Part shown: piece by piece, positions 13,776 through 61,083 of the stretch
How positions within the stretch are numbered: position 1 is the stretch's first letter
Layout of the letters: the number at the start of each line of letters is the position of its first letter
From: an uncultured Gammaproteobacteria bacterium
GTDB taxonomy: Bacteria; Pseudomonadota; Gammaproteobacteria; Steroidobacterales; Rariloculaceae
Length of the DNA stretch: 64,000 nucleotides
NCBI GenBank assembly: GCA_963702105.1
Contig: OY969712.1
Span: forward strand, 4,232,388 to 4,296,387
Direction of reading: 5' to 3'
Notes under the pieces: model-generated
Seen by the model: the letters and a program-made list of their open reading frames with translations, nothing else
Database searches by the model: none
What the model was told of the DNA's origin: nothing
Position numbers and translations under genes: made by a program

Positions 13776-15545
13776 TTGGGAGTGAACGCTTGGCTCACGA
13801 TGGGGATCGTGGGCCTCATGGTCGTTTTGCTGATCGGCACGCGTATCGCGGCCGATCTGTTGCTCGTCGCTGCGCTGACCGTCCTGATCCTCGCCAAGGT
13901 GATCTCGCCGGCCGACGCGCTCGCCGGACTCGGCAACCCCGGCCTCGCGACCGTCGCCGTCCTTTACGTCGTCGTGGCCGGCCTCGTCGACACCGGCGCC
14001 GTTCACGCCGTCGGGGCGCGCCTCCTCGGGCGCCCGAAATCCGTCTCCTCGGCGCTGCTGCGCCTCATGCTGCCCGTTACGGCCGTCAGCGCCTTTCTCA
14101 ACAATACGCCCGTCGTCGCCATGCTCGTGCCCGTCGTCGAGGACTGGGCCAAACGCTCGCGCATCTCGGTCTCGAAGCTCATGATCCCGCTGAGCTATGC
14201 GGCGATTCTCGGCGGCACCTGCACCTTGATCGGCACGAGCACGAACATCATCGTCAACGGCCTCGTGCAGCAGCGGACGAACCTCGATCCCATAGGCTTT
14301 TTCGCGATCGGCGCGCTGGGCCTGCCGACCGCCGTCGTCGGCGTGCTCTTCGTGCTCGCGGCGCACCGCTGGCTGCTGCCCGAGCGGCGCCCGCCGCTGC
14401 GTGATTCGGGCGAGGGGCGCGAGTACACGATGGAGATGCTGCTCGAGGAGACGAGCCCGATGATCGGCAAGAGCGTCGAGCAGGCCGGTCTGCGGCATCT
14501 GCCGGGCGCCTTCCTCGCCGAGATCGAGCGCGCCGACACCGTGCTTCCGGCCGTCGGGCCGGCCGAGGTCCTGCGGGCCGGAGACCGTCTCATGTTCGTC
14601 GGCGTCGTCGACTCGGTCGTCGACCTGCTGCGCATGCGCGGCCTCGTTCCCGCGCCCGAACAGCTGTTCAAGCTTTCGGCGCCGCGGCCCGAACGGCGCG
14701 TCGTCGAAGTGGTCGTCTCCGCGAGCTGCCCGCTCGTCGGCCGCACGGTCCGCGAGGGCCGGTTCCGCTCGCGTTACGACGCCGTCGTCATCGCGGCGGC
14801 CCGCAACGGCCGGCGGCTGCGTGGCAAGATCGGCGACATCGAGCTGCAGGTCGGGGACACGCTGCTGCTCGAGACGCGCCCGTCCTTCCCGACCCAACAG
14901 CGCAACTCGCGCGATTTCCTGCTCGTCAGCGAAGTGCAGAACGCCGCGCTGCCGCGCCACGACCGCGCCTGGCTAGCGGGGCTTATTCTCGCCGTCATGG
15001 TCGCCCTCGCCGCAACCGGCGCGCTCTCGATGTTCGAGGCTGCGCTCGTCGCCGCCGGCCTCATGCTCGCGACGCGCTGCACCACCGCGAGCGCCGCACG
15101 GGCGAGCATCGACTGGTCCGTCCTCATCGTCATCGGCGCCGCGCTCGGCATCGGCCGCGCGCTCGAAGCCAGCGGCGCGGCCCACGCCGTCGCCTCGGCC
15201 TCGATCGGCGCACTCGGCGGCAGCCCGTGGCTCGCACTGCTCGCGGTCTACATCGTCACGAGCGCATTCACGGCGCTGCTCACGAACAACGCCGCGGCCG
15301 TCATCGTATTCCCGATCGCGCAGGCCACCGCTCAATCCCTGGGCGTGAGCCTGTGGCCCTTCGTCTTCGTCATCATGATGGCGGCCTCGGCCAGCTTCGC
15401 GACCCCGATCGGGTATCAAACGAACCTCATGGTCTACGGACCCGGCGGGTATCGCTTCTCGGACTACGTGAGGTTCGGCTTGCCGCTCAACGTGCTGCTC
15501 GGAGCGATCGCCGTGTTGCTTGCGCCGGTGATCTGGCCGTTCTGA
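13776..15545 (+). CDS. SLC13/DASS-family permease with two central TrkA-C domains
   Basis: Many TM segments flank a cytoplasmic region (..GKSVEQAGLRHLPGAFLAEIER.. and ..GRTVREGRFRSRYDAVVIAAAR..) typical of TrkA-C pairs. The start is uncertain (TTG 13776, GTG 13782 or ATG 13800). Confidence 0.85.
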   Translation: MGVNAWLTMGIVGLMVVLLIGTRIAADLLLVAALTVLILAKVISPADALAGLGNPGLATVAVLYVVVAGLVDTGAVHAVGARLLGRPKSVSSALLRLMLPVTAVSAFLNNTPVVAMLVPVVEDWAKRSRISVSKLMIPLSYAAILGGTCTLIGTSTNIIVNGLVQQRTNLDPIGFFAIGALGLPTAVVGVLFVLAAHRWLLPERRPPLRDSGEGREYTMEMLLEETSPMIGKSVEQAGLRHLPGAFLAEIERADTVLPAVGPAEVLRAGDRLMFVGVVDSVVDLLRMRGLVPAPEQLFKLSAPRPERRVVEVVVSASCPLVGRTVREGRFRSRYDAVVIAAARNGRRLRGKIGDIELQVGDTLLLETRPSFPTQQRNSRDFLLVSEVQNAALPRHDRAWLAGLILAVMVALAATGALSMFEAALVAAGLMLATRCTTASAARASIDWSVLIVIGAALGIGRALEASGAAHAVASASIGALGGSPWLALLAVYIVTSAFTALLTNNAAAVIVFPIAQATAQSLGVSLWPFVFVIMMAASASFATPIGYQTNLMVYGPGGYRFSDYVRFGLPLNVLLGAIAVLLAPVIWPF

Positions 15546-15584
15546 ACGCGCTATGCCGTCGGCCGCACGATTCATGAACGGGTC

Positions 15585-15716
15585 GGCCGCACTCATGGAC
15601 GCCGTCGGCCGCACTCATGGACGCCGTCGGCCGCACTCATGGACGCCGTCGGCCGCACTCATGGACGCCGTCGGCCGCACTCATGGACGCCGTCGGCCGC
15701 ACTCATGGACGCCGTC
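15585..15716. repeat. 22-bp tandem repeat x6 (GGCCGCACTCATGGACGCCGTC)
   Basis: Perfect head-to-tail copies with no spacers. They are flanked on both sides by the related box GCCGTCGGCCGCACGATTCATGAACGGGTCGG (15555-15586 and 15711-15742). Confidence 0.9.
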
Positions 15717-15720
15717 GGCC

Positions 15721-15905
15721 GCACGATTCATGAACGGGTCGGGCGCCGCGGTTGGGGCGGAGGTTCGTGCATGAGGCCGCTGTCGGGACCGGCGTGAATC
15801 CGTCCCTGGAGCCTTCGTGCGCGCCATCCCTGGCGCTCACGATCCCGACAGCGGCCTCATGCACGAACCTCCTCTTCGACGTGGGCGGCCGTTCATGAAT
15901 CGTGC
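15721..15905. repeat. full-length nested-palindrome element (MITE/REP-like), copy 1
   Basis: 17-bp terminal inverted repeats GCACGATTCATGAACGG / CCGTTCATGAATCGTGC. Inner arms GGAGGTTCGTGCATGAGGCCGCTGTCGGGA / TCCCGACAGCGGCCTCATGCACGAACCTCC (15759-15872). Conserved core GCGCCATCCCTGGCGC plus CCGTGAATCCGTCCCTGG. Confidence 0.8.
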
Positions 15906-15979
15906 TGAATCCGCGCGGGGAACTCGCTCGAGCAAAGACGCCAGGTTCCTGCGCTCGTCGGAGCTCACGACGATCACAG

Positions 15980-16070
15980 CCGTCTCAGACCGACGTCTCG
16001 GGGCGGAGGTCTCGGCCCGAACTACCAACGTCTCGCGGCGAACGTCTCGGCGCCAACCACCGACGTCTCA
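15980..16070. repeat. degenerate ~35-bp units, inverted relative to the 16187-16404 array
   Basis: Units such as CCGACGTCTCGGGGCGGAGGTCTCGGCCCGAACTA contain GTCTCGGC and GGGCGGAGG. These are the reverse complements of GCCGAGAC and CCYCCGCCC in the right-hand array. Confidence 0.5.
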
Positions 16071-16192
16071 GGGCGGAGGGCTCGGCACAAGGGCGGTTTC
16101 GGGACGCTGAGCGCCAGGGATGGCGCTCAGCGAGCGCCCAGGGACGGGTTCACGGCGGTCCCGAAACCGCCCTTGTGCCGAGCCCTCCGCCC
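16071..16192. repeat. REP-like palindromic element, core copy 2
   Basis: Arms GGGCGGAGGGCTCGGCACAAGGGCGGTTTCGGGA / TCCCGAAACCGCCCTTGTGCCGAGCCCTCCGCCC. Core GCGCCAGGGATGGCGC ... CCAGGGACGGGTTCACGGCGGTCCCGA. Confidence 0.8.
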
Positions 16193-16404
16193 ACCCCACC
16201 GACGTATCGGCGCGGAGACCTCCGCCCAACCCACCGACGTGTCAGCGCGGAGACCTCCGCCCACCCCACCGACGTGTCAGCGCCGAGACCCCCGCCCACC
16301 CCACCGACGTGTCAGCGCCGAGACCCCCGCCCACCCCACCGACGTGTCAGCGCCGAGACCCCCGCCCACCCCACCGACGTGTCAGCGCCGAGACCCCCGC
16401 CCCA
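16187..16404. repeat. 35-bp tandem repeat, ~6.2 copies (CCGCCCACCCCACCGACGTGTCAGCGCCGAGACCC)
   Basis: Period 35 checked at 16191/16226/16261/16296/16331. The last four units are identical. The array abuts the stop codon of the minus-strand gene at 16406. Confidence 0.9.
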
Positions 16405-16405
16405 C

Positions 16406-16912
16406 TCAGAGCTTCCGCGAGTCGTAAGCCCAGTGCAGCAGCGCCTGCCGTTGCCGCCGGCGGCAGTCCAGGTCGCCGCGTTCGCAGTGCTTGCGGATCT
16501 GCGCCGCATGACGGCGCACCGCGCGCCAGCGCTTGACCTGGCGCGCATCGTCGTCGCAGCGTCTGCCGAGGTAATAGCGGCAGTACCACTGGAACCAGCC
16601 GCGCGGGTCCTCGTGGTAGATCCAGCCCTTGCGGCGCCACTCCGCGAGCGGTTGCGAGGCATTGACGCCGAAATAGTTGAGTTCCGGGTTGCGTCGTTCC
16701 GGCGAGAGCTTGGCGCCCGCGAACCACTCTCTCGGGAACTCTTCGCGGCAGTCGGTCAAGTACTTGCCGCCGAAGACGCCGAGCTCGAGCATTTCGGAGG
16801 GCGTCAGCTCCGGCGCGAAATAGGGGTCGAAGTCGCTGCCCGGCGCGACCGTGCGAAAGTAGACATAGCCCGACTGCATGCGGTCGTTCACGACGATTCT
16901 TCGAGGCTTCAC
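16406..16912 (-). CDS. conserved-looking hypothetical protein, Trp/Cys-rich (no family recognised)
   Basis: Track ORF 16406..16972. I prefer the GTG at 16912, which overlaps the upstream GNAT stop as GTGA. The alternative is the ATG at 16879. Non-biased sequence: ...GVFGGKYLTDCREEFPREWF...NYFGVNASQPLAEWRRKGWIYHEDPRGWFQWYCRYYLGRRCDDDARQVKRW... Confidence 0.6.
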   Translation of the reverse strand: MKPRRIVVNDRMQSGYVYFRTVAPGSDFDPYFAPELTPSEMLELGVFGGKYLTDCREEFPREWFAGAKLSPERRNPELNYFGVNASQPLAEWRRKGWIYHEDPRGWFQWYCRYYLGRRCDDDARQVKRWRAVRRHAAQIRKHCERGDLDCRRRQRQALLHWAYDSRKL

Positions 16913-17514
16913 GGCGGCCTGCGCTCCAAGGAGATTCGGCGAGACGCCGCTCCTTCGGGGGACGGCAGCCACCAGTCGGTCAGCGTCCAGCCGGCGTTCT
17001 CGAGCCAGGCGGCGCCCGGCGGCGGGCGGCGCGGCCGGCCCTTCGCGAAGCCGAGCCGGGCGAGGAGTCGGGCGATCCTCTCGTTCTGTGTCACGGAGAC
17101 GCAGCGCACCTCGGCGAGGCCGAGCGATCGGAAGCCGAAGTCGAGAAGCAGGCGCGAGGCTTCCGCCGCGAGGCCGCGGCCCCAGCGTTCGGGCGCGAGC
17201 TCGATGCCGAACTCGGCGTAGCCCTGCGGCAGGCGCCCCGCGAACAGCCCGCAGCAGCCGATGAGCCGCGCGGGCTCGCGGTCGGGATCCCCCTCGAGGA
17301 TCGCGAGCTCGTAATTGCGGCGCGGCCGCTCGGCGGCCCAGGCGATGAACCGTTCGAGCAGCCGGGCCGAAGCCCCCGGTGCGCCGGCGTCGGCCGCATA
17401 GAACGCGAGACAGCGCGGGTCGCTGCGGTAGCGGGCGAAAGCGGGGCCATCGGCCGGCACGAAATCCCGAAGGAGGACGCGCGCCCCCGCGAGCTCGAGA
17501 CTATCGCCGCGCAT
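16909..17514 (-). CDS. GNAT-family N-acetyltransferase (RimJ/RimL-like)
   Basis: Only the last 201 codons of track ORF 16909..18654 are credible: MRGDSLELAGARVLLRDFVPADGPAFARY...ELAILEG...GYAEFGIELAPERWGRGLAAEASRLLLDFGF..LGLAEVRCVSVTQNERIARLLARLGF. Confidence 0.8.
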   Translation of the reverse strand: MRGDSLELAGARVLLRDFVPADGPAFARYRSDPRCLAFYAADAGAPGASARLLERFIAWAAERPRRNYELAILEGDPDREPARLIGCCGLFAGRLPQGYAEFGIELAPERWGRGLAAEASRLLLDFGFRSLGLAEVRCVSVTQNERIARLLARLGFAKGRPRRPPPGAAWLENAGWTLTDWWLPSPEGAASRRISLERRPP

Positions 17515-17588
17515 GAGGGCAATCGGTTGCCCGCGGCGTCCCCTTGGCCGCCGCCTCGCCGCCGTCGAACCCGAAAGCGGCGGAGTCT

Positions 17589-18119
17589 TCATGTATTCGG
17601 AGCCGCCCCGGGCGCTGCGCCGAGCAGCCGTTCGTAAACGGCGAGGTCGCCGGCCGAGAAGCAGCAGAACAATACGGTCGCGAGCGAGCTCGCCCGCGCC
17701 GCGAAGTCCCGGACGGCCCGAATCGCGACGGGTGCCGCGAGCTCGATGGGGTAGCCATAGACCCCGGTGCTGATCGAGGGAAAGGCTACCGATGTCACGG
17801 CGTGCTCGGCTGCAAGCTCGAGGGCGCGCCGATAGCAGGCGTAGAGCAGGTCGGGCTCGCCCCGGCGACCGCCGTGCCAGACGGGACCGACCGCGTGGAT
17901 CACGAATCGCGCCTTGAGCCGGAAGCCCGGCGAGATGCGCGCGTCGCCCGGGTCGCACGGCCCCAGGCTCCGGCACGCTTCGAGCAGCGCCGGCCCCGCC
18001 GCCCTGTGAATGGCGCCGTCCACACCTCCGCCGCCGAGCAGGGAAGAGTTCGCGGCGTTGACGATGGCCTCGACGTCGAGCGTCGTGATGTCCGCGCGGA
18101 CCGCCTGCAGGCTCAGCAT
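17589..18119 (-). CDS. macro-domain protein (O-acetyl-ADP-ribose deacetylase / ADP-ribose-binding, YmdB-like)
   Basis: Start at the internal ATG ([42 protein letters not shown]...[12 protein letters not shown]). These are canonical macro-domain motifs. Confidence 0.9.
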
Positions 18120-18661
18120 CTGCGGGCGCTCCGTGCTCGCCACAGCTCCGAACGAAGCGCCCAGCGCTCGTGGTCGCGCCACCGACCCGCAATCTTGAGG
18201 TAGTTCGGCGAGTACCCTTCGAGCTCGAACCCCAAGCTGCGCACGAGTGCGATCGACCGGGCATTGCCGGGCTGGATGTTGGCCTCGAGCCGGTGGAGCC
18301 GGAGCATTCCGAAGGCCCGGCGAATGACGGCCGCGACGCCCGCGCGCATATGGCCCCGTCCGGCAAGCGGCACGAGCGCGTAGTAGCCGAGATAAGCCGA
18401 CCGGAAAGCACCGCGCACGATTTCGCTGACGTTGACGACGCCCGCGAGATCCCCGCTGCCGGTGCAGACGAGGTAGCTGAGCTGCGAGGGCGTGTCGGCG
18501 TGCGCGACGAAGGCTTCGAACTGCTCGCGCGTGGAGGGCGCCCTGACCCAGCGCCCGTGCAAGGCTCGGCTGCGCCGCACCGCGGCCAGAAACGCCTCGG
18601 CGCGCGCGAGCGACGGCCGCTCGAGCCGAACGCCTGCTCTCGACCGCGCGGCAACCGCCAC
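18113..18661 (-). CDS. GNAT-family N-acetyltransferase (RimJ/RimL-like)
   Basis: GTG start. ...[87 protein letters not shown]. Confidence 0.8.
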
Positions 18662-24277: not shown

Positions 24278-24474
24278 AATCCGTCGCGCTACCGGTCGGC
24301 CGCAGGCTTCATGAACGGTTTGGGCGACGGTGGCGAGGAGGAGGCTCCTCGCGGTTCGCTGACCGACGCACGCTGATCCGCACGGTGGCGTCCGGTCCGC
24401 GCTCTTCACCATCCGGGTGCGATGACCGCGGATCGGGCCGTCTTCGAAGACCGCGACAGCTGCAGAACGTCTGC

Positions 24475-24596
24475 GGGCGGAGGCGTCGGCGGAAGGGCGG
24501 TGTCGGGATCGTAAGCGCCAGGGATGGCGCTTACGAAGCGTACACGGACGTATTCACAGCGGTCCCGACACCGCCCTTCCGCCGACGCCTCCGCCC
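24475..24596. repeat. REP-like palindromic element, core copy 3
   Basis: Arms GGGCGGAGGCGTCGGCGGAAGGGCGGTGTCGGGA / TCCCGACACCGCCCTTCCGCCGACGCCTCCGCCC. Core GCGCCAGGGATGGCGC. A lone TTCATGAACGG box lies at ~24309-24322. Confidence 0.8.
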
Positions 24597-24645
24597 ACCA
24601 CCACCTATGCGTCCGAAGCGGTCTTAAGCCGGCCGGCAGCCCGCG

Positions 24646-29912: not shown

Positions 29913-32900
29913 CTAAAGCTTCGATTGGCTGAGCTGCCGATAGTATTCGGCGACCGCGTCCTCGTAACCCTTCTCGATCTTGACGGGAGGTTCGGTCCTG
30001 ACGGCGTCCGATTCGTCGCTGCCGCCCGCCGATTTGTCGAGCTTCAGCTCGAGCTGATCGACCTCGTTCGCGAGCGTCTGAAAGTCCTGCGCAATGGCGT
30101 CCGGGTTCCCGGTACCCGCGAGTGCGGCTCTGAGCTTCTCGCCAAGAGCCTGCACGGCACGCAGCTCCTCGTCGCTGAGCCCCTGCGCGCGCAGCTTCGA
30201 GCCGAGATTCAGCAGATCGTTGCCAGCCGTCTGCAGCCGATCCCGGGCCTGCGCGATCGTCTGGGGATCCCAGCGGAACGACGGGTCGTAGGGGCCCCAG
30301 ACACGGTCCGTGTTCGGGTTGTAGTAGCCGCCGCCGCCGTTGTTGTAGCCGCCGCCGGCATAGTTGCCGCCCGCGGCCCCGCCGCCCCCGCGCTGACCCG
30401 AGGCCTGCTGCCCGCCCTGCTGACCGCCGGCCTGCTGAGCCTGCTGACCCTGCTGACCGGGCTGGCCGTTGGCCGCCTGGAGATTCTGCTGGCTCTGCTG
30501 GTTCTGCTGGCCGGGCTGCGTGCCGGGCTGCTGGGGGTTGCCCGGCTGCAGCGCGCTGCCCGGCTGCCCGTTCGCGGCCTGCTGCCGGTTCTGCCCTGCG
30601 CCGGGCGCGCCGTTCGGGCGCGCCTGACCGCCCGCGCCGCGGTTCTTGAGGTCGTTCATCTCGCGGCGCAGCGCCTGCAGCTGCGCGACGAGCTGCTGGT
30701 TCGGGTCGGCCGTCGGCCGGTCGCCCTTCTCGGCCTCGCTGCTCGCGAGCGCGAGCGCGTCCTTCGTATCCTGCTCGAGGTCCCTGAGCGCCTGGGTCGT
30801 GACCGCGTCGGTCGCGGCGACTTCGGTCGCGTACCCTTCGCGGATGCCCTCCGCCGCGGTCGTGAGCCGTGCTTCGGCCTGCGACTGCTGGAGCTTCGTC
30901 AGCGACTTATCGAGCTGCTTCGCCGCGCCCGGGGTCTGACCACGGAACTGCTGCGAGACCTGCTCGATGTCCTTCTCGAGCGCCTGCAGATCCTTGCCGA
31001 GCGCGTCCTTGCGGTCGCCGAACTCGGCCGACTGGCGATCGTCGAGATCGCTGCGGAAGCGGTCGCCGCCGCTCGATTTCCGCAGCGCGGCCTGCAGCTG
31101 CTCGGCCAACTGCCGTTGACGTGCGTAAAGCTCGCTCGAGCGGTCCGCGAGGTCCGAGAACGCCTTCGAGGCGTCGGCCTGGCGTTGGGCCGTCATCTGC
31201 TGGAGCGCCTGCTGGAGCTGCCGGCGGGCCTGCTCGATCGCGCGCCGCGCCTGCTCGGGGTCCACGTTCTGACCCGCGGCGCTCGCGCGGTCCATGGCCT
31301 GCAGCGCGGCGTCGAGCTGCTGTATGGCCTGCTGCGTGGCAGAGTTGCCGGCCGCCTGACCGCCGGCCTGCGCCTGCTGCTGGCCCGGCTGCCCCGGCTG
31401 TCCGGTCTGCCCGGGCTGTCCCGACTGCTGCTGAGACTGGCCCTGCTGACCCTGCTGGCCCTGCTGACCCTGCTGGCCCTGCTGACCCTGCTGGCCCTGC
31501 TGACCCTGCTGACCCTGCTGACCCGGCTGATTCGCGGCCAACTGCTGCCGCTGGAGCTGCTCGAGCTGGCGCTTGAGCTCCTCGGTCTGCCGCCGCAGCG
31601 ACTCCTGCTGCCAACGGTCGCGCTCGGTCAGCTGCTGCCGGTTCGCCGCGAGCTGCGCAAGGCTCTCCTGCCGGCGCGCGAGCTCCTGAAGCTTGCGGAT
31701 CGCATCGTCTACGCCCTGCTGCTGCTGCTGCTCGAACGAGACCGGCTTCTCCGTTTCGTACTGGTTCTTCTCCAGGTCCATCTCGAGCTCGAAGAGCTCG
31801 CTGAGGTCCCGCCCCGCGAGGCCGCCGCCCCCGCCGCCGCCGTTACGCTGGAACGAGACCTGGATGTCCGTGAACAGCGATTCGGCGTGGATCAGGTGCT
31901 GGAGCGCTTCCTGCTCGGGCGTCACGGCGTCCGAAAGCTTCACGTCTCCGAGCCGCTCGGCCGCAGGCTTCATCGAGTCGGACGCCTGCTCGAGGCTCTT
32001 GACGAACTCGGCGATGCGCGGGTCCCGGTCCGTGAGCTCGCGGGCCTTCGTGCGCGAGGCGAGCGTCTGCGCCTCGTCCGAGAGCGTGCGCTGCATCTCG
32101 GACAGCATCTTCGAGTTGTCCTCGATCTGCTGTTTGTCGAGGAAGCTCGAGCCCTGGTCTTCGCGCTGGCGGATCAGGTTCCAGGTCGCGACGAGGATTT
32201 CCTTCTGCCGGCGCGAGATCTCATCCTGCCGCTGGCCGCCGCCGCCGCCCCCGCCGCCGGCTTGGCTCGACTGCGTGTAGGAACGGTCGAAGGGCTCGAC
32301 CTGAATGAAGTAAAGGTCGGTCTGGACCGTGTGGTCGCGATCCTTGGCGACGGCGTAATAAGAGATCAAGTCGCCCGGCTCGAGCTTACCGGCCGCGCGC
32401 GCAATCGCCGCCTGCGCGTCCCCAGCCGGCGCAGGGCCGCCGGCCTCCGGGGCCGACTCCCCGCTCGGGGCCTGCCGCTGCCGGAACAGATCGAGCGGCG
32501 AGGGCGCGGGCCCCGCGGGACCCGCGCCGCCGGCCGTCGTCGCGGCGCCCGTCACGGCCTTGCGCAGATCCTCGAGGTAGAGCGTCTTCTCGTCCTCCGC
32601 GTGCGTGCTCCCGGCATCCAGGGCCGCCGTGTGCCACTCGCCGCCGTTGATCGAGTAGTGCAGCTCGACCTGATTGAGGCCGAAATCGTCGCTGGCCTCG
32701 ACGTCGAGGGGCACTTCCTCGATTCGGCTCGCGCGGTAGTCGCGGCCGGGCTTGACGAGCTTGATGACGGGCTTGTTGTCCGGCACGACCGAGATGAAGT
32801 AGTCGTCGGTCAGCTTAACCTTGTCCTTGTCGAACAGCGTCGAGACGTAATACTGGCCTTCCTTGTCCACGTCGATCGTGGCTTTGCTCACGTTGCCGCT

Positions 32901-40121: not shown

Positions 40122-41287
40122 GGGGACCGGTCCGCGCCGGAGGGCGGATTCGTTTCGGCGGGCGGGCTCGTGTCAGTAGTCGGGCTCGTGTCAGTAGTCG
40201 GGCTCGTGTCAGTAGTCGGGCTCGCCTTGGTTCCCAGCGCATCGCCGTCCGGGGAAATCTGCTTTTGCGCGTCCGCCGCCGCTGCATCGCCTGTGGGCCC
40301 CGCCGACGCGCCGGCGCCCTCCGCTGCCTTGCCGCCCTTGCCCTGGGCCGCGTCGATCTTCTGCTGCACCTTGGCAAGATTCACGAGCAGCGCCTGCAGC
40401 TGGTCGAGGTAATCCGCCTGCTGCAGCGTATCCTTGCGCTGGCGCAAAGCCTCGATGCGGCCTTCGATGTCGCCGAGCTGCGAATACAGCGCCGCGACCT
40501 CCGGAGTCCGCGTGCCGAGCTCGGTCAGGCGGGCGGCCATAAAGTGCGGGGCTTCCTTGCCCTCGAGCTGCGGATGCTCGGTCGCGAGCGTGCCCTCGCT
40601 CTTGTAACTGTCGGCCACCTGCCGCGAAGCGTAGTCGAAGGCCTCCTTGGCCGTGACGACGCCGTCCTTGTTCGTGTCCGCCTCCTTGCTCGAGAGCGCC
40701 GCGGCCCACTGCGTGCCGAAGCGCGTGGCGTTGCGCTCGGCGCCGCTGCGCGTCGCCGTGATCACGGTCCTGCCGTCCGCCGACCACTTCTTGAGCACGG
40801 CTCCGCTCGCGCTCGTCGCATCCACGACGAGCTGGGACCGCGCGGGCAGCGCGGCCAGCCACTTGGCGAGCTCGTCGCCGTCCACGTCCGGGCCCGGGAT
40901 GTTGAACTTGTAGTGCTCGCCGTCGTAGCTGCCGTGGCCGATCAGGATCACCACTGCGCTGTCGCTCTCCTTGAGCTTGCCCGCCATCTCGCGGAAGGCC
41001 TTCTCCATGGAGGCGCGCGAGACGGCCGAGCCCGTCAGCAGCTTCACGCGCGACTGGTCACCGACCGTGCGCCGCGCGGCCGCGGCCAGCGACTTCGCGT
41101 CGGCGACGAACTGCTTTTCGTAGTCCGGCTGGCCCCCGAGACCCGAGACGATGAGGTAGTACGGCTCCGCGAATGCGGCGGGTGCGGCCAGCGCCGCGGA
41201 AAACGCCGCGAGGGCGGCGAGCCCCAATCGGCGGCGCGCGCGCGGCTTTTCCGAGACTCGGCTCGCGAACGTCATCGGTTCCATCAT
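40118..41287 (-). CDS. secreted protein: caspase/legumain (C13/C14)-fold-like domain lacking the canonical Cys, EF-hand loop, coiled coil and (TTDTSP)3 tail
   Basis: Start at the ATG at 41287, overlapping the upstream stop (ATGA). Signal peptide ...RRLGLAALAAFSAALAAPAAFA. VVILIGHGSYDGEHYKF (His-Gly) and LVVDATSASGA where DxCxSG is expected. DTNKDGVVTAKE matches the 12-residue EF-hand loop. The fold assignment is my judgement, not a search result. Confidence 0.6.
   Translation of the reverse strand: MMEPMTFASRVSEKPRARRRLGLAALAAFSAALAAPAAFAEPYYLIVSGLGGQPDYEKQFVADAKSLAAAARRTVGDQSRVKLLTGSAVSRASMEKAFREMAGKLKESDSAVVILIGHGSYDGEHYKFNIPGPDVDGDELAKWLAALPARSQLVVDATSASGAVLKKWSADGRTVITATRSGAERNATRFGTQWAAALSSKEADTNKDGVVTAKEAFDYASRQVADSYKSEGTLATEHPQLEGKEAPHFMAARLTELGTRTPEVAALYSQLGDIEGRIEALRQRKDTLQQADYLDQLQALLVNLAKVQQKIDAAQGKGGKAAEGAGASAGPTGDAAAADAQKQISPDGDALGTKASPTTDTSPTTDTSPTTDTSPPAETNPPSGADRSP
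40164..40217. repeat. 18-bp tandem repeat x3 encoding (TTDTSP)3
   Basis: GGGCTCGTGTCAGTAGTC x3 read directly. A partial fourth unit follows. Confidence 0.85.
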
Positions 41288-46551: not shown

Positions 46552-46795
46552 AGCCTCGGCGTTCAAGACAAGACGGCATCAGGCCGGTCCGGTACGCATG
46601 CACACCGGACCTGCAGCATTACGCTACATGGCTTCGATCCGAAGGCTCCATCTCGGACGTTGGCTGGAAGGTTGGTCGTTCCGCCTTCGTTCGACCGAGA
46701 ACCGAGCGCGCCGCTTAAGCACGGATCGCATCCGGCCGCTGCCAGGGTCGCTACGGGGACCCGAGCGAAGCCGACGCGCGCAAGGCCGCTGGTCC

Positions 46796-46909
46796 GGCGT
46801 GTTTGCCCATGAGGCGCCTGTCGGGACGCTGGGCGCCAGGGATGGCGCCCAGCGAGCCCCCAGGGACGGGTTTACGGCGGTCCCGACAGGCGCCTCATGG
46901 GCAAACACG
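46796..46909. repeat. REP-like palindromic element, core copy 4
   Basis: Arms GCGTGTTTGCCCATGAGGCGCCTGTCGGGA / TCCCGACAGGCGCCTCATGGGCAAACACGC. Core GGCGCCAGGGATGGCGCC ... CCAGGGACGGGTTTACGGCGGTCCCGAC. Confidence 0.8.
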
Positions 46910-46934
46910 CCGGCCCCATCAGGTCGGGTCTTCG

Positions 46935-52399: not shown

Positions 52400-53259
52400 T
52401 GCACACGCGACGCGGCGCGCCCCGCAACGGCCGCCGCGCGGGCGCACGCGCAGCGGGCTTAGAGCGAGCTGCGCCGCGTCGCGTCCATGCCCGCAGGCGT
52501 CTCGGCCAGCACTTCCTTCACGATCCGGCCGTCATCGCACGCATCGTCGCGGCCATCGCTCCGCAGCACGACGACGCCATCGTCGAAATCGGCGGCGGCC
52601 TCGGTGCGCTCACGGGACCGCTGCTCGAGCGGGTCGCCGAGCTGCACGTCGTCGAGATCGACCCGCGCCTCGGGCCCGACCTCGAGCGCCGCGGCACCGA
52701 CGAGCACCGCCTGATACTGCATGCGGGCGACGCGCTCGAATTCGATTTCGCCGCGCTCGCCCGCGCTCCGCATTCGCTGCGCGTCGCCGGCAATCTGCCC
52801 TACAACATCTCGACGCCCCTGCTGTTCCATCTGCTCGCGAGCCGCGCCGCGATCCGCGACATGCACATCATGCTCCAGAAGGAAGTCGTGACGCGCATGA
52901 CCGCTTCGCCGGGCGGCAAGGACTACGGCCGACTCACGGTCATGCTCTCGCTGGCCGCCGACGTCGAGGCCTGCTTCGACATCGGCCCCGGCGCCTTCTC
53001 GCCGCCGCCTCGCGTCTGGTCCACGCTCGTGCGCGTCACGCCGCTCGCGGCACCGCGCTTCCAACTCGCCGACGAAGCGGCCTTCGCACGCCTCGTGGCG
53101 CAGCTCTTCTCGATGCGGCGCAAGACGCTCGCCCGCATCCTCAAGGGGCGGTTGAGCGCGGCCGAGATCGAGTCGCTGCAGCTCGATCCGCGCGCGCGGC
53201 CGGAGACGCTGGCGCCATCGGACCTTGCGCGGCTGGCGGAGGCTCTCGGGGGTCGGTAG
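52399..53259 (+). CDS. rsmA: 16S rRNA (adenine1518/1519-N6)-dimethyltransferase RsmA/KsgA
   Basis: The ATG overlaps the pdxA stop (TGATG). LGQHFLHD, VEIGGGLGALT, NLPYNISTP. Confidence 0.9.
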   Translation: MHTRRGAPRNGRRAGARAAGLERAAPRRVHARRRLGQHFLHDPAVIARIVAAIAPQHDDAIVEIGGGLGALTGPLLERVAELHVVEIDPRLGPDLERRGTDEHRLILHAGDALEFDFAALARAPHSLRVAGNLPYNISTPLLFHLLASRAAIRDMHIMLQKEVVTRMTASPGGKDYGRLTVMLSLAADVEACFDIGPGAFSPPPRVWSTLVRVTPLAAPRFQLADEAAFARLVAQLFSMRRKTLARILKGRLSAAEIESLQLDPRARPETLAPSDLARLAEALGGR

Positions 53260-53300
53260 CGCGCGCGCCATCGGCTAAGGGCGCCCAGACGCCGTAGCGG

Positions 53301-53420
53301 GGCGGAGGCATCGGCTGAGGGCGGTGTCGGGACCGCCAAAATACCCATCCATGGGGGCTGCGTTGCGCGCCATCCCTGGCGCGCACGCTCCCGACACCGC
53401 CCTCAGCCGATACCTCCGCC
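53301..53420. repeat. REP-like palindromic element, core copy 5 (opposite orientation)
   Basis: Arms GGCGGAGGCATCGGCTGAGGGCGGTGTCGGGA / TCCCGACACCGCCCTCAGCCGATACCTCCGCC. Core GCGCGCCATCCCTGGCGCGC. Confidence 0.8.
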
Positions 53421-53566
53421 GGGACGCCGACTTGGCCATAGCGAAGTCCGAAGACGGCACTGATCGATCGCATCCGAACTCCGCAGGGACGCAAGTACCG
53501 AACGCCTCTGCCAGCGAGCGCAGGGACTGCCGTCTTCAAACCCACCAATTTCCTCGCGGGGTGGCA

Positions 53567-53749
53567 GCAGGATTCATGAACGGCCATCAACGTCGCAGAG
53601 GAGGCTCGTGCAGACAGGCGCTTTCGGGGCCGTGCGCGCCAGGGAGGGCGCGCCCGGAGCCTCCAGGGATGGATTCACGGCGTCCCCGAAAGCGCCTGTC
53701 TGCACGAGCCTCCGGCTGCCACCACCATTGATCCGTTCATGAATCCTGC
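53567..53749. repeat. full-length nested-palindrome element (MITE/REP-like), copy 6
   Basis: 17-bp terminal inverted repeats GCAGGATTCATGAACGG / CCGTTCATGAATCCTGC. Inner arms GGAGGCTCGTGCAGACAGGCGCTTTCGGGG / CCCCGAAAGCGCCTGTCTGCACGAGCCTCC. Core GCGCGCCAGGGAGGGCGCGC ... CCAGGGATGGATTCACGGCG. Confidence 0.8.
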
Positions 53750-53780: not shown

Positions 53781-54608
53781 ATGACCCTCTACGCCATCGG
53801 CGACATCCAAGGCTGCTACGGCCCCTTCGCCACACTGCTCGACCGCCTCGACTTCGATCCGTCGCGCGACCGCCTCTGGCTCGTCGGCGACCTCGTGAAT
53901 CGCGGACCGGACTCGCTCGCCGTGCTGCGCCGTGTCGCGGAGCTCGGCTCGAGCGTCGTGACCGTGCTCGGCAATCACGATCTGCACCTGCTCGCGGCGG
54001 CGGCCGGCCTGCGCCGTCCTTCGGCCGCCGACACGCTCGACCAGGTCCTGGCCGCGCCCGATTCCGAGGAGCTGCTCGATTGGCTGCGCCGCCGCCCGCT
54101 TCTGCACTACGACCGCGAGCACCGCCGCGCCCTCGTGCACGCCGGCATCCCGCCCGAGTGGGACATCGAGGCCGCCCTGCGGCACGCAGCCGAGGTCGAG
54201 GGTCTGCTGCGCGGCCCGCATTGGCGATACGGGCTCGAGGTCATGTACGGCAACGATCCGCCGAAGTGGACTCAGGATCTCGAGTATGCGGCGCGGGTGC
54301 GCTATACGATCAACGCCCTGACGCGTATGCGCTTCTGCGATGCGAGCGGTGGGCTCGATCTCGAGCGGTCCGGCCCGCCCGGCACCCAGCCCCCGGGGCT
54401 CGTGCCCTGGTACGACGCGCCTGGCCGACGGACGACGACGACTCATATCGTATTCGGGCATTGGTCGGCGCTCGGGTTCATGCGCCGCGTGGACGTGACG
54501 GCGCTCGATAGCGGCTGCGTCTGGGGCGGCATGCTCACGGCCGTCGCGCTCGACGGCGACCTCGAGCCGACTGCGATCGCCTGCGCGCAGGCGGCACCGC
54601 GCGGCTGA
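53781..54608 (+). CDS. apaH: bis(5'-nucleosyl)-tetraphosphatase (symmetrical) ApaH
   Basis: MTLYAIGDIQGC, GDLVNRGP, GNHD, GHW. Confidence 0.9.
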   Translation: MTLYAIGDIQGCYGPFATLLDRLDFDPSRDRLWLVGDLVNRGPDSLAVLRRVAELGSSVVTVLGNHDLHLLAAAAGLRRPSAADTLDQVLAAPDSEELLDWLRRRPLLHYDREHRRALVHAGIPPEWDIEAALRHAAEVEGLLRGPHWRYGLEVMYGNDPPKWTQDLEYAARVRYTINALTRMRFCDASGGLDLERSGPPGTQPPGLVPWYDAPGRRTTTTHIVFGHWSALGFMRRVDVTALDSGCVWGGMLTAVALDGDLEPTAIACAQAAPRG

Positions 54609-58652: not shown

Positions 58653-61083
58653 CTACGATCCCGATAGCCAATCCATCTGCCGCTCGTCGCCGATGACGCG
58701 CTCGAAGTCTAGCCCCAGCGTCTGGAGCACGGGCTCGGCCACGGGCCGGATCTGCTTCTCGACGTAGTGCTCCCGGTCGAGCGGATGGCGCAGGTTGTCG
58801 AGCGGCTCGGCGCCGGCCGTCGTCATGATGTAGCTCACGAGCCGTCCCGCATCGTTGGACTTCCGCGCGGCGGCCACGTGAGGGGGTGTCGAGGCCGTGT
58901 ACGCCTCGGCATTTTTGCGCAGCTGCTTGCGGTACACGAGCGCTCCATCGAGCTCGCCCCGCCTGAGCCGCCGCACGACGCCCGCGAGATAGGCGTCGAC
59001 GGGTTGGCCGGCGAACAGTCTCGCATAGAGCTCCCGCTGCACGTCCTTGGCGAGCGCGGTCCAGTCGCGCCGTACGACCTCCATGCCGACGAACTCGACC
59101 CCGCCGCCGGCGAGCAGCCCCACATACCGCTTGCTCGCGCCGCGTGCGCTGTGGCGCGCATGGGGCAAAAACAGTTTGATGTAGAGCTTCTCGAATTCGA
59201 TCTCGAGCCGGCTCGCGACACGACAACGCTCCTCGAGATGGCGTGCGAGGGCGGCGTTGAGCGCCGCGGCGAGCTCGCGGGCCCGCGCATCGAGCGCATC
59301 GAGCGCATCGGGCGCATCGAGCGCATCGGGCGCATCGGGCGCATCGGGCGCATCGAGCGACGCGGGGGCGGCGCCGGCGATCGGCTCCGCCTGCGAGCCC
59401 TCGGCCGCCGCCTCGACGAACAGGCTGTCCGTGTCGCCGTAAAGCACGCGAAACCCCGCCGCCTCGAACCACCGCTTGGCCCACAGCAGCAGCTCCCGGC
59501 CCGTGCCCGTGATCGCGTTCGCGAGCGCCGGATTGTAGAACCGGCAGGCCGGCGTGCCGAGCACGCCGTAGAACGAGTTCATGAGGATCTTGACCGCATG
59601 CGCGGCGACCGCGTCGCCGCGGCGCTTCGCCGCCTCGCGCTGCGGAAAGAGCTCGTCGAGAAGCCCCGGCAGGATCCCGGGCGCGCGCCGGAAGGCGGCG
59701 GCCGGCGTGCGTATGAGATCGTCCGCCGGCGAGGGCTCGGCGACGAACGTCAACGGATCGATGTTGAAGCTGCGGATGATGCTCGGATACAGGCTCTTGA
59801 AGTCGAACACCCAGACCGCGGCGTGAAGGCCGGGCGCGGGTTCGAGCACGTGTCCGCCCTGTTGCGCGGCGTGCACGCGGGCGTCGTCGCCGCGAACCGT
59901 CGGCGCCACGAGGCCGCGCCGCTCGAGCTCGGCCAAATACAGGAAATCGAACGACGCGATGCTGGCGGCCACGCGGTCGGGGGTCATTCCCGTAAGGCGA
60001 CTGCGGGCGAACGCGAGGCGCACGAGATCGAGGCGCTCGACGATCTCGAAGGCGAGGCGGGCGTCCGTGCGGGCGTAGCGGGCGAACGCGGCGAGATCGT
60101 GGCGATAGTCGTGCAGGATCTCCGCCGCGCGCTCCCGGACGTCCCCGTGCAGCGCCTTACCCTCGCCGAGCACTGCCCGCGCCACGGCATCGAGCGAGTA
60201 GTCCTCCATGCGCACGAAGGCACCGCGCAGCAAATTGATCCCGTCCAGCACGAGCCGGCCCGGGAGGCTGGCCTGGCCGCTGCCGAACCAGCCTTCGGCC
60301 TTGCGCAAGCGCAGCCGGCCCGGTCCGCGGCCGAGCGCGAGGGGATGCTGCACGCGCGCCGCGATCCGCTGCAGCACCGTCAGATCGAAGTCGATGGTGT
60401 TCCAGCCCGTCAGGAACGTCGGGATCGAGCTCGGCCACGCGGACGCAGAACGCTTCGGGGGCCTCGCGCTCGTCGGCGCAGCGCGTCGCGCGCTCGGGCA
60501 TGGCGCGCTCCGAGCCGTCGACGACGAGCACCTCGTCGCTGCCGAGGCCGTAAAGAGACACGGCAAGCAGGCGCCGAGCCTTCGGATCGGTTTCGATGTC
60601 GAACGACAGTATGCGGGGTTCGATCTCGACGGCCGCGGGCGCGATCTTCGCGTCCTCGAACACGAGGGAAACGCCGCGCCCCGGCCGTCCGGCTCCCTCG
60701 ATTTCGCAGCCGCCCTTGACGCCGCGCTCCATGAGGTAGCGGACGGCGAAGCGCACGTCCGCTTCGAAGGTCTCGATGCCCGCGGCGTGCAGCCGCTCTC
60801 TGATCGCCGGAACGTCCTGCGGCGTCTCCGTCTCGATCCTGCAGACGGTGGCGCCCGCGAACGTCCGGCGGTCGTCCGGCTCGAGAACGCCGAGCCCGAG
60901 CGCCTTCGCCTTCGGCGCAGCGGCCGCCAGGACGAAAAAGAGAGGGCGCTGACGCGTGTCGCGAAAGAGAAACGTGCGCCCGTCTTCGAGGCGGCCGTAG
61001 AGATGGATGACGGGCACGCGCCTCCCGCCTGCTCCGGCTTCGATGCGATAGCTGGCCTGCAGAATGAAGCCGCGGACGTTCAT
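58653..61083 (-). pseudogene. polB: family-B DNA polymerase (Pol II, polB) split by a single-nucleotide frameshift at ~60414
   Basis: Track ORF 60157..61083 carries the N-terminal and exonuclease part (ExoI LSFDIETD) up to ...VAELDPDV. Track ORF 58653..60566, in another frame, resumes at LTGWNTIDFDL. It then has motif A DFKSLYPSII, motif B KILMNSFYG and motif C YGDTDS. The total span is 2431 nt = 3n+1. Removing one C from GTT-C-CTG gives DPDVLTGWN, compared with E. coli Pol II DPDVIIGWN (from memory). Confidence 0.8.
59287..59358. repeat. 9-bp tandem repeat x8 (GCATCGRGC) inside polB encoding (DA[PL])8
   Basis: Read directly. The protein shows LDAPDAPDAPDALDAPDALDALDA just after motif C. Confidence 0.85.

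Follow-up and report, generated by a model that had tools for sequence, protein, structure and literature searches.

The 64-kb stretch of DNA analysed here (the window) contains an 860-bp gap between two convergent genes, which holds two copies, A and B, of one hairpin-forming repeat family, arranged head-to-head at the convergent 3' ends of both genes. The region is probably a compound BIME-like cluster built from two members of a single lineage-specific family, with tandem arrays that arose from slippage or unequal exchange, and replication slippage at hairpin-forming REP/BIME-like elements is the most likely origin. The composition of the tandem arrays shows them to be end-modules of the two elements in multiplied form, not independent sequences. 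The sequence-only reading had described REP-like nested palindromes accompanied by two kinds of tandem array; this make-up is borne out, and all the features it listed were found again, to within about 10 nt.

Layout of the locus and its arrays

On the left, the gap is bounded by a gene for a CitMHS/SLC13-type transporter with TrkA-C domains (13776-15545, plus strand, stop codon at 15543-15545; Pfam CitMHS 3.6e-73, TrkA_C 7.7e-21), which shares 92% identity with its orthologue in L001, the closest species compared. On the right, a convergent gene (16406-16912, minus strand) encodes a 168-aa conserved protein of unknown function that is a 100% match to P0001 (168 aa), has at least 8000 homologues, and showed no match in Pfam, NCBIfam, PHROG or PDB. 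Exact-protein look-ups with the transporter, two starts of the neighbouring gene and P0001 found no other strain of the locus on record. That the region between the genes is itself gene-free, as had been claimed, was confirmed by GC content at the three codon positions, which was flat at about 0.7 for all internal ORFs, as compared to 0.69/0.48/0.91 for the transporter gene and 0.64/0.48/0.86 for the 168-aa gene. A proline-rich protein product was ruled out by this flat profile, and neither repeat period, 22 or 35, is divisible by 3. No canonical promoter or intrinsic terminator was found in the region.

Tandem Repeats Finder (TRF), which had been proposed as a check, reported three arrays covering both array types: 22 bp × 7.6 (15555-15724, score 292), 35 bp × 2.8 (15989-16086, 79% matches) and 35 bp × 6.5 (16177-16402, plus strand, score 389, 95% matches). 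Repeat matches numbered 6, where 0-0.4 were expected from shuffles, and the region folds with a z-score of -11.9.

Element A (15721-15905, minus strand) is a full type-1 member, scoring 136.6 bits against the covariance model and recovered as inverted repeats I2 and I5. It consists of a tail-side terminal inverted repeat (TIR; 15721-15737), a body (15752-15874) and a head-side TIR (15889-15905), and its palindrome has 52-nt arms that are 83% complementary (15740-15891). The TIR box GCACGATTCATGAACGG occurs directly at 15565 and 15721, and inverted at 15889. The first of these lies (at 15565-15581) within a 24-nt TIR-type unit, GTCGGCCGCACGATTCATGAACGG, at 15558-15581 on the plus strand, which has the same sequence as 15714-15737 and is an additional direct copy of the tail-side TIR of A. 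Between the two 24-nt stretches sit six 22-bp units, GTCGGCCGCACTCATGGACGCC (15582-15713, plus strand), which were 100% identical both by TRF and as repeat-family D2. The sequence-only reading took this unit for a variant of the TTCATGAA box, and rightly so: its core (CGTCCATGAGTGCGG on the minus strand) yields a 15-mer that in contigs L102 and L117 flanks family members as true inverted TIR pairs. The unit is a real alternative TIR allele within the family, and the 22-bp array is six copies of that allele on the tail side of A.

A unique intergenic spacer (15906-15965, unstranded), which aligns to L001 8005-8057, separates the heads of A and B. Element B (16071-16192, plus strand; 130.2 bits, inverted repeat I3) is a type-2 member lacking TIR boxes, with perfect 35-nt arms (16071-16105 and 16158-16192, 100% complementary) enclosing a conserved 52-nt core. 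It is flanked on both sides by the tail ACCCCACC and the 5' tag GACGTCTCA. On its head side lie three degenerate 35-bp units (15966-16070, plus strand; TRF and register listing), each composed of a tail-like CCAACCACC, the tag GACGTCTCA and an arm GGGCGGAGGTCTCGGC, and on its tail side lies the 35-bp × 6.5 array, with a unit made of arm (GCCGAGNCCYCCGCCC), tail (ACCCCACC), tag-like GACGTGTCA and GC. Unit 1 of this right-hand array is B's own arm, and the array ends 3 nt from the stop codon of the neighbouring gene. Its unit is unique within the window, its variants form an ordered gradient in the register listing, and its last four units are identical. Both 35-bp arrays are made up of copies of the outermost 16-nt arm of B, joined to its tail and 5' tag.

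The syntenic site in L001 holds an orthologue of A (L001 7818-8004), which differs from A at about 10 arm positions while the stems of both copies remain perfectly paired; the block 15711-15960 is 75% identical to L001. The L001 site has no 22-bp array, no B, no 35-bp arrays and no 168-aa gene. At the position of the 22-bp array it carries (GGCGT)5.6, a different microsatellite at the same TIR-adjacent spot. The right-hand array had been held to be young, and both its perfect units and its absence from this sister species agree with that. A mobile cassette of B together with the 168-aa gene was considered and rejected, as no family member lies close to the homologues of this gene in L077 and L138-L140.

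A family with a conserved three-way junction

Family members are nested palindromes of 123-190 nt, in which a long variable stem, P1 (30-35 bp), closes a conserved three-way junction of ~55 nt with two small hairpins, P2 and P3. The window holds six copies, all intergenic; one further copy was found in L001, one weak copy in L002, and about 65 in 60 Steroidobacteraceae-like metagenome contigs, where they adjoin stop codons. The P1 sequence differs between copies yet stays complementary: across 55 copies, 96.1% of stem cells were paired, compared with 73.7% in shuffles and 37-46% in slid controls, and both sides had changed in 35 of 44 pairs. G-U pairs account for only about 2% of stem cells, so the stems look like a DNA palindrome.

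Outer TIR boxes of 17-20 nt (..ATTCATGAACG..) are carried by some members, namely A, F, the L001 copy, and copies in L094, L102, L117, L095 and L137, and were absent from the window copies B, C, D and E. Inverted pairs of elements were head-to-head in 8/8 cases (about 5 independent loci), with spacers of 76-300 nt. The same intergenic sites, between imuB and dnaE2, at putA/DUF59 and at tfoX, are occupied across many related contigs, with compensated stems that differ. At orthologous sites, a flip of the core alone, with the arms left in place, could not be told apart from inversion or re-insertion of the whole element, as arm asymmetries travel with the core. The orientation of elements relative to the adjacent gene, scored in motif-anchored contexts after a GC3 gene caller had been set aside as noisy, showed a bias, not a rule.

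Arrays recur beside other members of the family. Locus L082 has a 27-bp × 4.5 array on one side of its element and a 25-bp × 6.4 array on the other, and in L095, L002, L094 and L102 arrays abut an element or its TIR. Overall, 11 of 80 arrays fall no more than 50 bp from an element, a zone that makes up only 3.5% of the sequence; this enrichment is confounded by intergenic location and by some redundant contigs.

The family is undescribed. Rfam 15 gave 0 matches in the window at gathering thresholds, and its E-value mode returned nothing beyond a 16-bit RsmW fragment and noise from long hairpins (miRNA-type) below threshold; no paper describing the family came up in a literature search that used the core sequence and Steroidobacter with REP. 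One chance-level match was found in a plasmid collection, and none among viral contigs. The locus itself is an ordinary bacterial repeat cluster of the 'junk/regulatory' type; what is new, and unusual in its build, is the family.

Origin of the arrays and rival readings

Slippage at these elements would proceed as follows. Replication would stall at stable hairpins or cruciforms, with about -90 to -109 kcal/mol for each element, the quasi-palindromic arm would provide short direct repeats, and arrays would then form by replication slippage or unequal exchange, as the anatomy of the locus suggests. The perfect complementarity of divergent stems may be kept by symmetrisation at the DNA level, through quasi-palindrome template switching or hairpin-templated repair, with a probable contribution from selection. 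The elements would be non-autonomous and REP/MITE-like, persisting at gene 3' ends and inside operons, while the arrays themselves may be neutral, fast-changing by-products. No transposase or other partner protein was identified for the family and no target-site duplication was evident around TIR-bearing copies, so that I can only infer mobility. If the elements have a host role, it most likely lies in RNA or DNA hairpins that affect 3'-end stability or read-through. The strong conservation of the core, and of the element where sites are orthologous, hints at a specific function for the host that the slippage explanation does not name.

The sequence-only reading had instead seen one imperfect palindrome of ~420 bp, with a decayed left array, a REP copy at its centre and an expanded, inverted right array, which would amount to a single giant hairpin or cruciform. 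The arms of B are indeed perfectly inverted, the 16-nt arm copies of the left array are complementary to those on the right (I6-I19), and both MFE and centroid folds pair some arm copies across B. The inverted symmetry about 16132, however, comprises only B's 35-nt arms and the short 16-nt arm copies, which are separated by linkers in direct orientation. The claimed inversion of the left units relative to the right ones holds for the 16-nt arm segment and fails for the 19-nt linker, which is direct, as follows from units built of arm, tail and tag. As whole units they are not simple inverted copies, since 22-25 of 35 positions match in direct register and 16-18 of 35 as the reverse complement, and local alignment of the flanks scored 56 over 83 nt in direct orientation (null 16.9 ± 2.9) against 30 over only 21 nt when inverted (null 14.1 ± 2.3). 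With an arm that is itself a quasi-palindrome (GCGGAG NN CTCSGC), the inverted signal rests on very few positions, and unit numbers are unequal (3 on the left, 6.5 on the right), making a giant palindrome very unlikely. The larger true symmetry is between A and B (108 nt, 75% complementary, centred at about 15974), which is explained by a head-to-head dimer of two family members. It is also improbable, if a little less so, that the arrays, or their lengths, were produced by the assembly of a metagenome-assembled genome. In favour of this, the window was taken from a 5.45-Mb contig of MAG type, assemblers easily make errors in perfect tandem repeats, and no second copy of the locus was found; yet neither the gradient of 35-bp variants nor the bracketing of the 22-bp array by identical 24-nt variants is made by collapse or expansion, and analogous arrays adjoin family members in independent assemblies. 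The arrays are extremely unlikely to be functional DNA sites of another type, whether iterons or an origin as in plasmids, CRISPR-like repeats or a coding gene with internal repeats. The units are identical copies of element ends, which argues against all of these. Six contiguous 22-bp direct repeats would be of a size similar to an iteron array, but neither a Rep, a Cas nor any other relevant gene is adjacent, GC content is about 70% throughout with no AT-rich stretch, and chromosomal synteny links the locus to a 4.4-Mb contig; contiguous units leave no unique spacers for a CRISPR, and the long ORFs running across the arrays have the flat codon-position GC and non-triplet periods noted above.

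A further reading concerns the loops of the core, both of which match CANGGANG, the CsrA/Rsm binding consensus, as C-A-N-G-G-A-N-G closed by a C-G pair. The family could accordingly be a functional RNA element with two CsrA/Rsm-binding hairpins, acting as sites in the extended 3' UTRs of the two convergent genes or collectively as a CsrA sponge, which is unlikely on balance. In P3, a loop that was left unconstrained by the search pattern, the A, G, G and A are conserved in 54-55 of 55 copies while the two N positions vary freely, and the commonest P3, UACAGGGAUGUA, fits both the CsrA SELEX consensus RUACARGGAUGU and the binding motifs CANGGANG / ANGGAN (PMC6849547, PMC3791407). The two sites are 24 nt apart, covariation supports the stems, GGA is retained in both loops of the divergent L002 copy, G-U pairs are somewhat commoner on the GGA strand than on the opposite one, and the weak RsmW match (16 bits) falls on the P2 hairpin of A. 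Strand usage points the other way: at co-directional sites, whose transcribed strand leaves no doubt, the GGA strand runs antisense to the operon in 15/18 imuB-dnaE2 loci and 10/12 tfoX loci, 25/30 in all, and the proximal element at gene 3' ends usually shows the complementary UCCCU loops. The stems, moreover, are almost without wobble pairing, and the search for promoter and terminator signals gave none that would serve an independent transcript. A tblastn search for csrA over 1.3 Mb of sequence gave no match, which says little about the lineage. A broader proposal, that the family is no passive REP-like DNA but a host-maintained structured element with invariant twin C-ANGGAN-G loops recognised by one specific dimeric protein, with CsrA/RsmA on antisense or read-through transcripts as the obvious candidate, and that the element makes arrays by its own end-specific nicking or replication instead of passive slippage, is distinctly unlikely. 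If it were true, hundreds of interspersed copies would constitute a distributed Csr sponge or regulon in Steroidobacteraceae, including one fixed between imuB and dnaE2 of the SOS mutagenesis operon, and a CsrA match that proved functional would give a lead to the Csr/Rsm antagonists or targets that are missing from this gammaproteobacterial branch.

Comparison with known systems

With slippage at BIME-like elements as the preferred explanation, the locus is a textbook-like case of interspersed palindromic elements seeding minisatellites, and a good candidate for a strain-typing marker in an abundant uncultured soil lineage. The family holds more interest than its locus here, being undescribed, widespread in soil Steroidobacteraceae and equipped with loops that fit the CsrA recognition motif. 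Its invariant three-way junction, combined with stems that diverge at a roughly neutral rate yet remain perfectly paired, offers a natural system for studying palindrome symmetrisation.

REP/BIME clusters of Enterobacteria and Pseudomonas, including the RAYT-mobilised REPIN doublets, share with this family a high copy number of intergenic palindromes, most of which follow a gene or separate two convergent or co-directional ones. Also shared are inverted dimers, which are frequent and have a spacer, mosaic clusters with variable numbers of palindromic units and linkers, and long persistence in a lineage (PMC2817692, PMC3116915, PMC3333891, PMC3733652). REP elements measure 20-40 nt, in contrast to 123-190 nt here, and do not have the conserved asymmetric three-way-junction core or the 30-35-bp stems that differ between copies. 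No GTAG tag was seen beside the stems in the flanks and alignments examined. While BIMEs alternate in orientation, the units within each array here share one orientation; the BIME features of the locus are its recurrent linkers and mosaic build and the alternating orientation of A and B, and variation in unit number was seen only as presence or absence of arrays relative to L001. Unlike REPINs, the family has no known RAYT gene, and no gene-sized interval enclosed by an element pair was present among the loci examined.

CGTC-tagged REPs, e.g., neisserial dRS3/NIME (Di Nocera et al., 2013; PMC3733652), have a similar layout, with an unpaired CGTC-like tag 5' of the stem (here ACGTC and CGGCGTC), a CCA/ACC-rich 3' tail, predominant head-to-head dimers, no dedicated transposase known and, in some cases, large clusters. 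Membership is not supported, as those elements have 8-9-bp stems and 4-5-nt loops (PMC3733652), compared with 30-35-bp stems and a 55-nt core here, and the CGTC-like tag, present in the copies of the window, is missing from more distant family copies. Bacterial MITEs (ERIC/IRU, Correia/NEMIS, RUP) are comparable in their length of 100-200 nt, TIRs in a subset, fold-back structure and position in or next to transcription units. MITEs, however, conserve their ends, whereas this family conserves its centre and varies its arms, and it differs further in showing no target-site duplication and having no autonomous IS relative known. Type-2 copies carry a CGTC-containing direct repeat after the tail (CCACCGACGTMTC in B) that is only suggestive as a target-site duplication, and no IS bounded by family TIRs was present in the 64-kb window.

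The arrays are head-to-tail repeats of 10-100 bp in non-coding DNA and in this respect are VNTRs, resembling mycobacterial MIRUs and other minisatellites with head-to-tail intergenic units of 20-50 bp, in which perfect units imply recent slippage. They differ from MIRU-type VNTRs in that their units are pieces of an interspersed palindromic element and in that array variation is known here only against L001. Lastly, CsrB/RsmY/RsmZ-type RNAs resemble the family in their ANGGAN hexaloops, which have a closing C-G pair and sit on GC-rich stems, and in a spacing that would let a single CsrA dimer span two sites. Unlike those RNAs, the family has no above-threshold Rfam match and only two sites per copy, and its copies are interspersed, numerous and usually antisense to neighbouring genes.

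Arrays and symmetry of the intergenic locus

Tandem Repeats Finder, run over 15000-17000, reported three arrays in the gap between the convergent transporter gene and the 168-aa gene: a 22-bp array (15555-15724, ×7.6, score 292), a left 35-bp array (15989-16086, ×2.8, 79% matches) and a right 35-bp array (16177-16402, ×6.5, 95% matches, score 389). In-register reading resolved the 22-bp array into six identical units (15582-15713), as the sequence-only reading had described, bracketed by two identical 24-nt variants (15558-15581 and 15714-15737) with the box GCACGATTCATGAACGG, a third copy of which lay in inverted orientation at 15889-15905. The 35-bp units could be dissected into a 16-nt arm and a 19-nt linker: the arms (left GGGCGGAGGTCTCGGC, right GCGGAGACCTCCGCCC) were complementary at 15/16 positions, and the linkers (left CCAACCACCGACGTCTCA, right CCAACCCACCGACGTGTCA) had the same orientation on both sides. 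Since the arm is itself quasi-palindromic (GCGGAG NN CTCSGC), its inversion between the two arrays is supported by few positions. The left units had been taken for inverted right units, yet whole units agreed better in direct register (22-25/35) than as reverse complements (16-18/35). Local alignment did recover an inverted relationship between the flanks (30 over 21 nt, null 14.1 ± 2.3), but the direct one was better (56 over 83 nt, null 16.9 ± 2.9).

The same gap holds two palindromes, A (15740-15891; 52-nt arms, 83% complementary) and B (16071-16192; 35-nt arms, 100% complementary), with six motif matches against 0-0.4 in shuffles, and the region folded 11.9 sd better than shuffles. Inverted 12-mers had three centres of symmetry, at 16132 (B), 15816 (A) and 15974 (A versus B); the genuine large-scale symmetry thus lies between A and B, and it replaces the single ~420-bp palindrome proposed before. 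The region is non-coding, in line with its earlier description as gene-free: all internal ORFs had a flat codon-position GC of ~0.7, compared with GC1/GC2/GC3 of 0.69/0.48/0.91 and 0.64/0.48/0.86 for the flanking genes, and neither array period, 22 or 35, is divisible by three. Neither a sigma-70-like promoter nor a T-tract terminator was found within it. Other tandem repeats in the window (31437-31530, 9 bp ×10.4; 59285-59359, 9 bp ×8.3; 40161-40224, 18 bp ×3.6) probably lie within coding sequence because their periods are multiples of three.

On the right, the 168-aa protein (16406-16912, -) has at least 8000 homologues, with ~72-83% identity among the matches listed, which include Pyrinomonadaceae, Sedimentisphaerales and Gammaproteobacteria; it had no match in Pfam, NCBIfam, PHROG or PDB, and its gene stands in unrelated contexts elsewhere. 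In the adjoining 581-aa ORF (16909-18654, -), GC1/2/3 is flat at 0.73/0.72/0.73 and the GNAT domain match is confined to residues 392-536; the ORF is probably over-extended, the true acetyltransferase gene being much shorter.

A family of nested-palindrome elements

The core motif GCGCCATCCCTGGCGC occurred six times in the 64-kb window. Besides A (15721-15905, -) and B (+), which stand head-to-head, the copies were C (24477-24599), D (46795-46917), E (53297-53419, -) and F (53598-53720). A subset of copies carries outer terminal inverted repeats (TIRs) of 17-20 nt (type 1, such as F, with boxes at 53567 and 53733); type 2 copies, such as E, do not. E and F form a second head-to-head dimer (53297-53749), without arrays, between plus-strand genes of which one ends at 53259 and the next starts at 53783. 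In the region of C (24302-24599), a single TIR box lies upstream, 170 nt from the stem, and the downstream side has none; the copy may be disrupted or composite.

Seven copies were used to build a covariance model, which, searched in related loci, matched one copy in the closest genome, a sister species (L001), and one diverged copy in a more distant genome (L002), with no copy in ~70 other loci with the same transporter gene. A 21-base core pattern, scanned against metagenome contigs, yielded ~65 elements on 60 contigs; the ImuB protein adjoining one of them had named relatives in Steroidobacteraceae only, and the closest relative of the window itself is an uncultured gammaproteobacterial MAG. 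Family sequences had no match in Rfam or in plasmid and viral collections, and a literature search found no published description.

The consensus over 55 copies comprised three helices: P1, a long stem closing with TCGGGA/TCCCGA; P2, CGTGCGCGCC-AGGGAY-GGCGCGCACG; and P3, GCC-TNC-AGGGAY-GN'A-TTCAC-GGC. Standard pairs filled 96.1% of pair cells in these copies, against 73.7% when shuffled and 37-46% with partners slid; both sides had changed in 35 of 44 pairs, and at the majority of P1 positions each of the four Watson-Crick pairs occurred. G-U pairs made up only ~2% of cells, a better fit to a palindrome symmetrised at the DNA level than to RNA under selection, and I infer that a DNA-level process keeps the stems symmetric. 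Quasi-palindrome template switching is an established mechanism for this. A and its L001 orthologue differed at ~10/33 arm positions with both stems still perfect, and the L001 arms were nearer to F than to A, which suggests conversion among copies or re-insertion.

All eight element pairs were head-to-head; with random orientations, the probability of this would be (1/4)^5, ~0.001, for the ~5 independent loci that I take them to represent. Elements often occupied the whole intergenic gap. In 18 Steroidobacteraceae-like contigs (among L078-L137; e.g. L101 7640-7780 and L121 3650-3790), an element fills the 130-150 nt that separate the imuB stop codon from the start of dnaE2; in 12 contigs one stands between a tfoX-like gene and a gene that ends in ..FRNISED, and a third site lies between putA and a DUF59 gene. 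The imuB-dnaE2 element is a fixed insertion inside an SOS mutagenesis operon, where it cannot be a strong terminator. Orientation at one site varied (15 vs 3 at imuB-dnaE2, 10 vs 2 at tfoX), so function cannot be strictly orientation-dependent.

Origin and age of the arrays

Judged by their composition, the tandem arrays are multiplied end-modules of the elements. The 22-bp unit has a 15-mer core, CGTCCATGAGTGCGG, that is not identical to A's own TIR; in other members this 15-mer is a genuine TIR, and inverted pairs of it surround elements in two metagenome contigs (L102 and L117). The 35-bp unit consists of B's outer arm and tail (ACCCCACC) plus a tag (GACGTCTCA); tail and tag lie on both sides of B as a 13-nt direct repeat, CCACCGACGT(C/A)TC, and the type 2 copies C and E have tag, arm, tail and second tag in the same order, but without arrays. 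The anatomy of B recurs with other units in L082 (13471-13875), where an element has a 27-bp ×4.5 array (CCACGCCCGACCAGCACGCCGTCAAAC) on its head side and a 25-bp ×6.4 small-hairpin array (GGCGCCAACCGAAGGGCGCC) on its tail side, and in L095 (67-158), where the same 27-bp unit lies beside an element. In L002 (3027-3153), the diverged copy is immediately followed by a 33-bp ×3.8 array whose unit is a different REP-like hairpin (GCGACTAGAAAGTCGCTCCCACAG), and arrays adjoin a TIR in L094 and L102. Overall, 11/80 arrays lay within 50 bp of an element, a zone holding 3.5% of sequence, an excess inflated by intergenic location and redundant contigs.

Synteny with L001 extended on both sides of the locus, and the A orthologue was present there. 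L001 lacked the 22-bp array and had a (GGCGT)5.6 microsatellite (L001 7782-7809) at the same TIR-adjacent spot, making this a repeat hot-spot shared by both species, with unrelated units. It also lacked B, both 35-bp arrays and the 168-aa gene, with 15961-16964 replaced by an unrelated 165 nt. Together with the perfect units and a gradient of variants running away from B, the missing arrays indicate recent expansion, as had been suspected for the right array.

Possible roles and relation to known repeats

The locus is probably a REP/BIME-like cluster in which hairpin-forming elements would make their own terminal modules prone to slippage, giving tandem arrays. The arrays themselves would be neutral and hypervariable, and the elements, if of any use, would act as 3'-end or intra-operon hairpins. 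The loops offer another reading, as candidate CsrA/Rsm recognition sites (consensus RUACARGGAUGU / CANGGANG / ANGGAN; PMC6849547, PMC3791407). Both core loops read C-A-N-G-G-A-N-G (e.g. 16106-16157, +, and 15791-15839, -) and match CANGGANG; in P3, which the core search pattern left unconstrained, the loop A, G, G and A were kept in 54-55 of 55 copies with only the two N positions varying, and the commonest form, UACAGGGAUGUA, fits the consensus. However, the GGA strand was antisense in 25/30 unambiguous sites, which argues against a role in mRNA, and recognition by CsrA/Rsm is considered unlikely.

Compared with the closest known kinds, namely REP/BIME/REPIN, CGTC-tagged REPs, hairpin MITEs and VNTRs, the family differed from each on size, core, absence of a GTAG tag or absence of a target-site duplication, and was therefore placed as a variant of the interspersed-palindrome kind; it appears to be a previously undescribed one. 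It shares with the CGTC-tagged REPs their arrangement as head-to-head dimers (PMC3733652).
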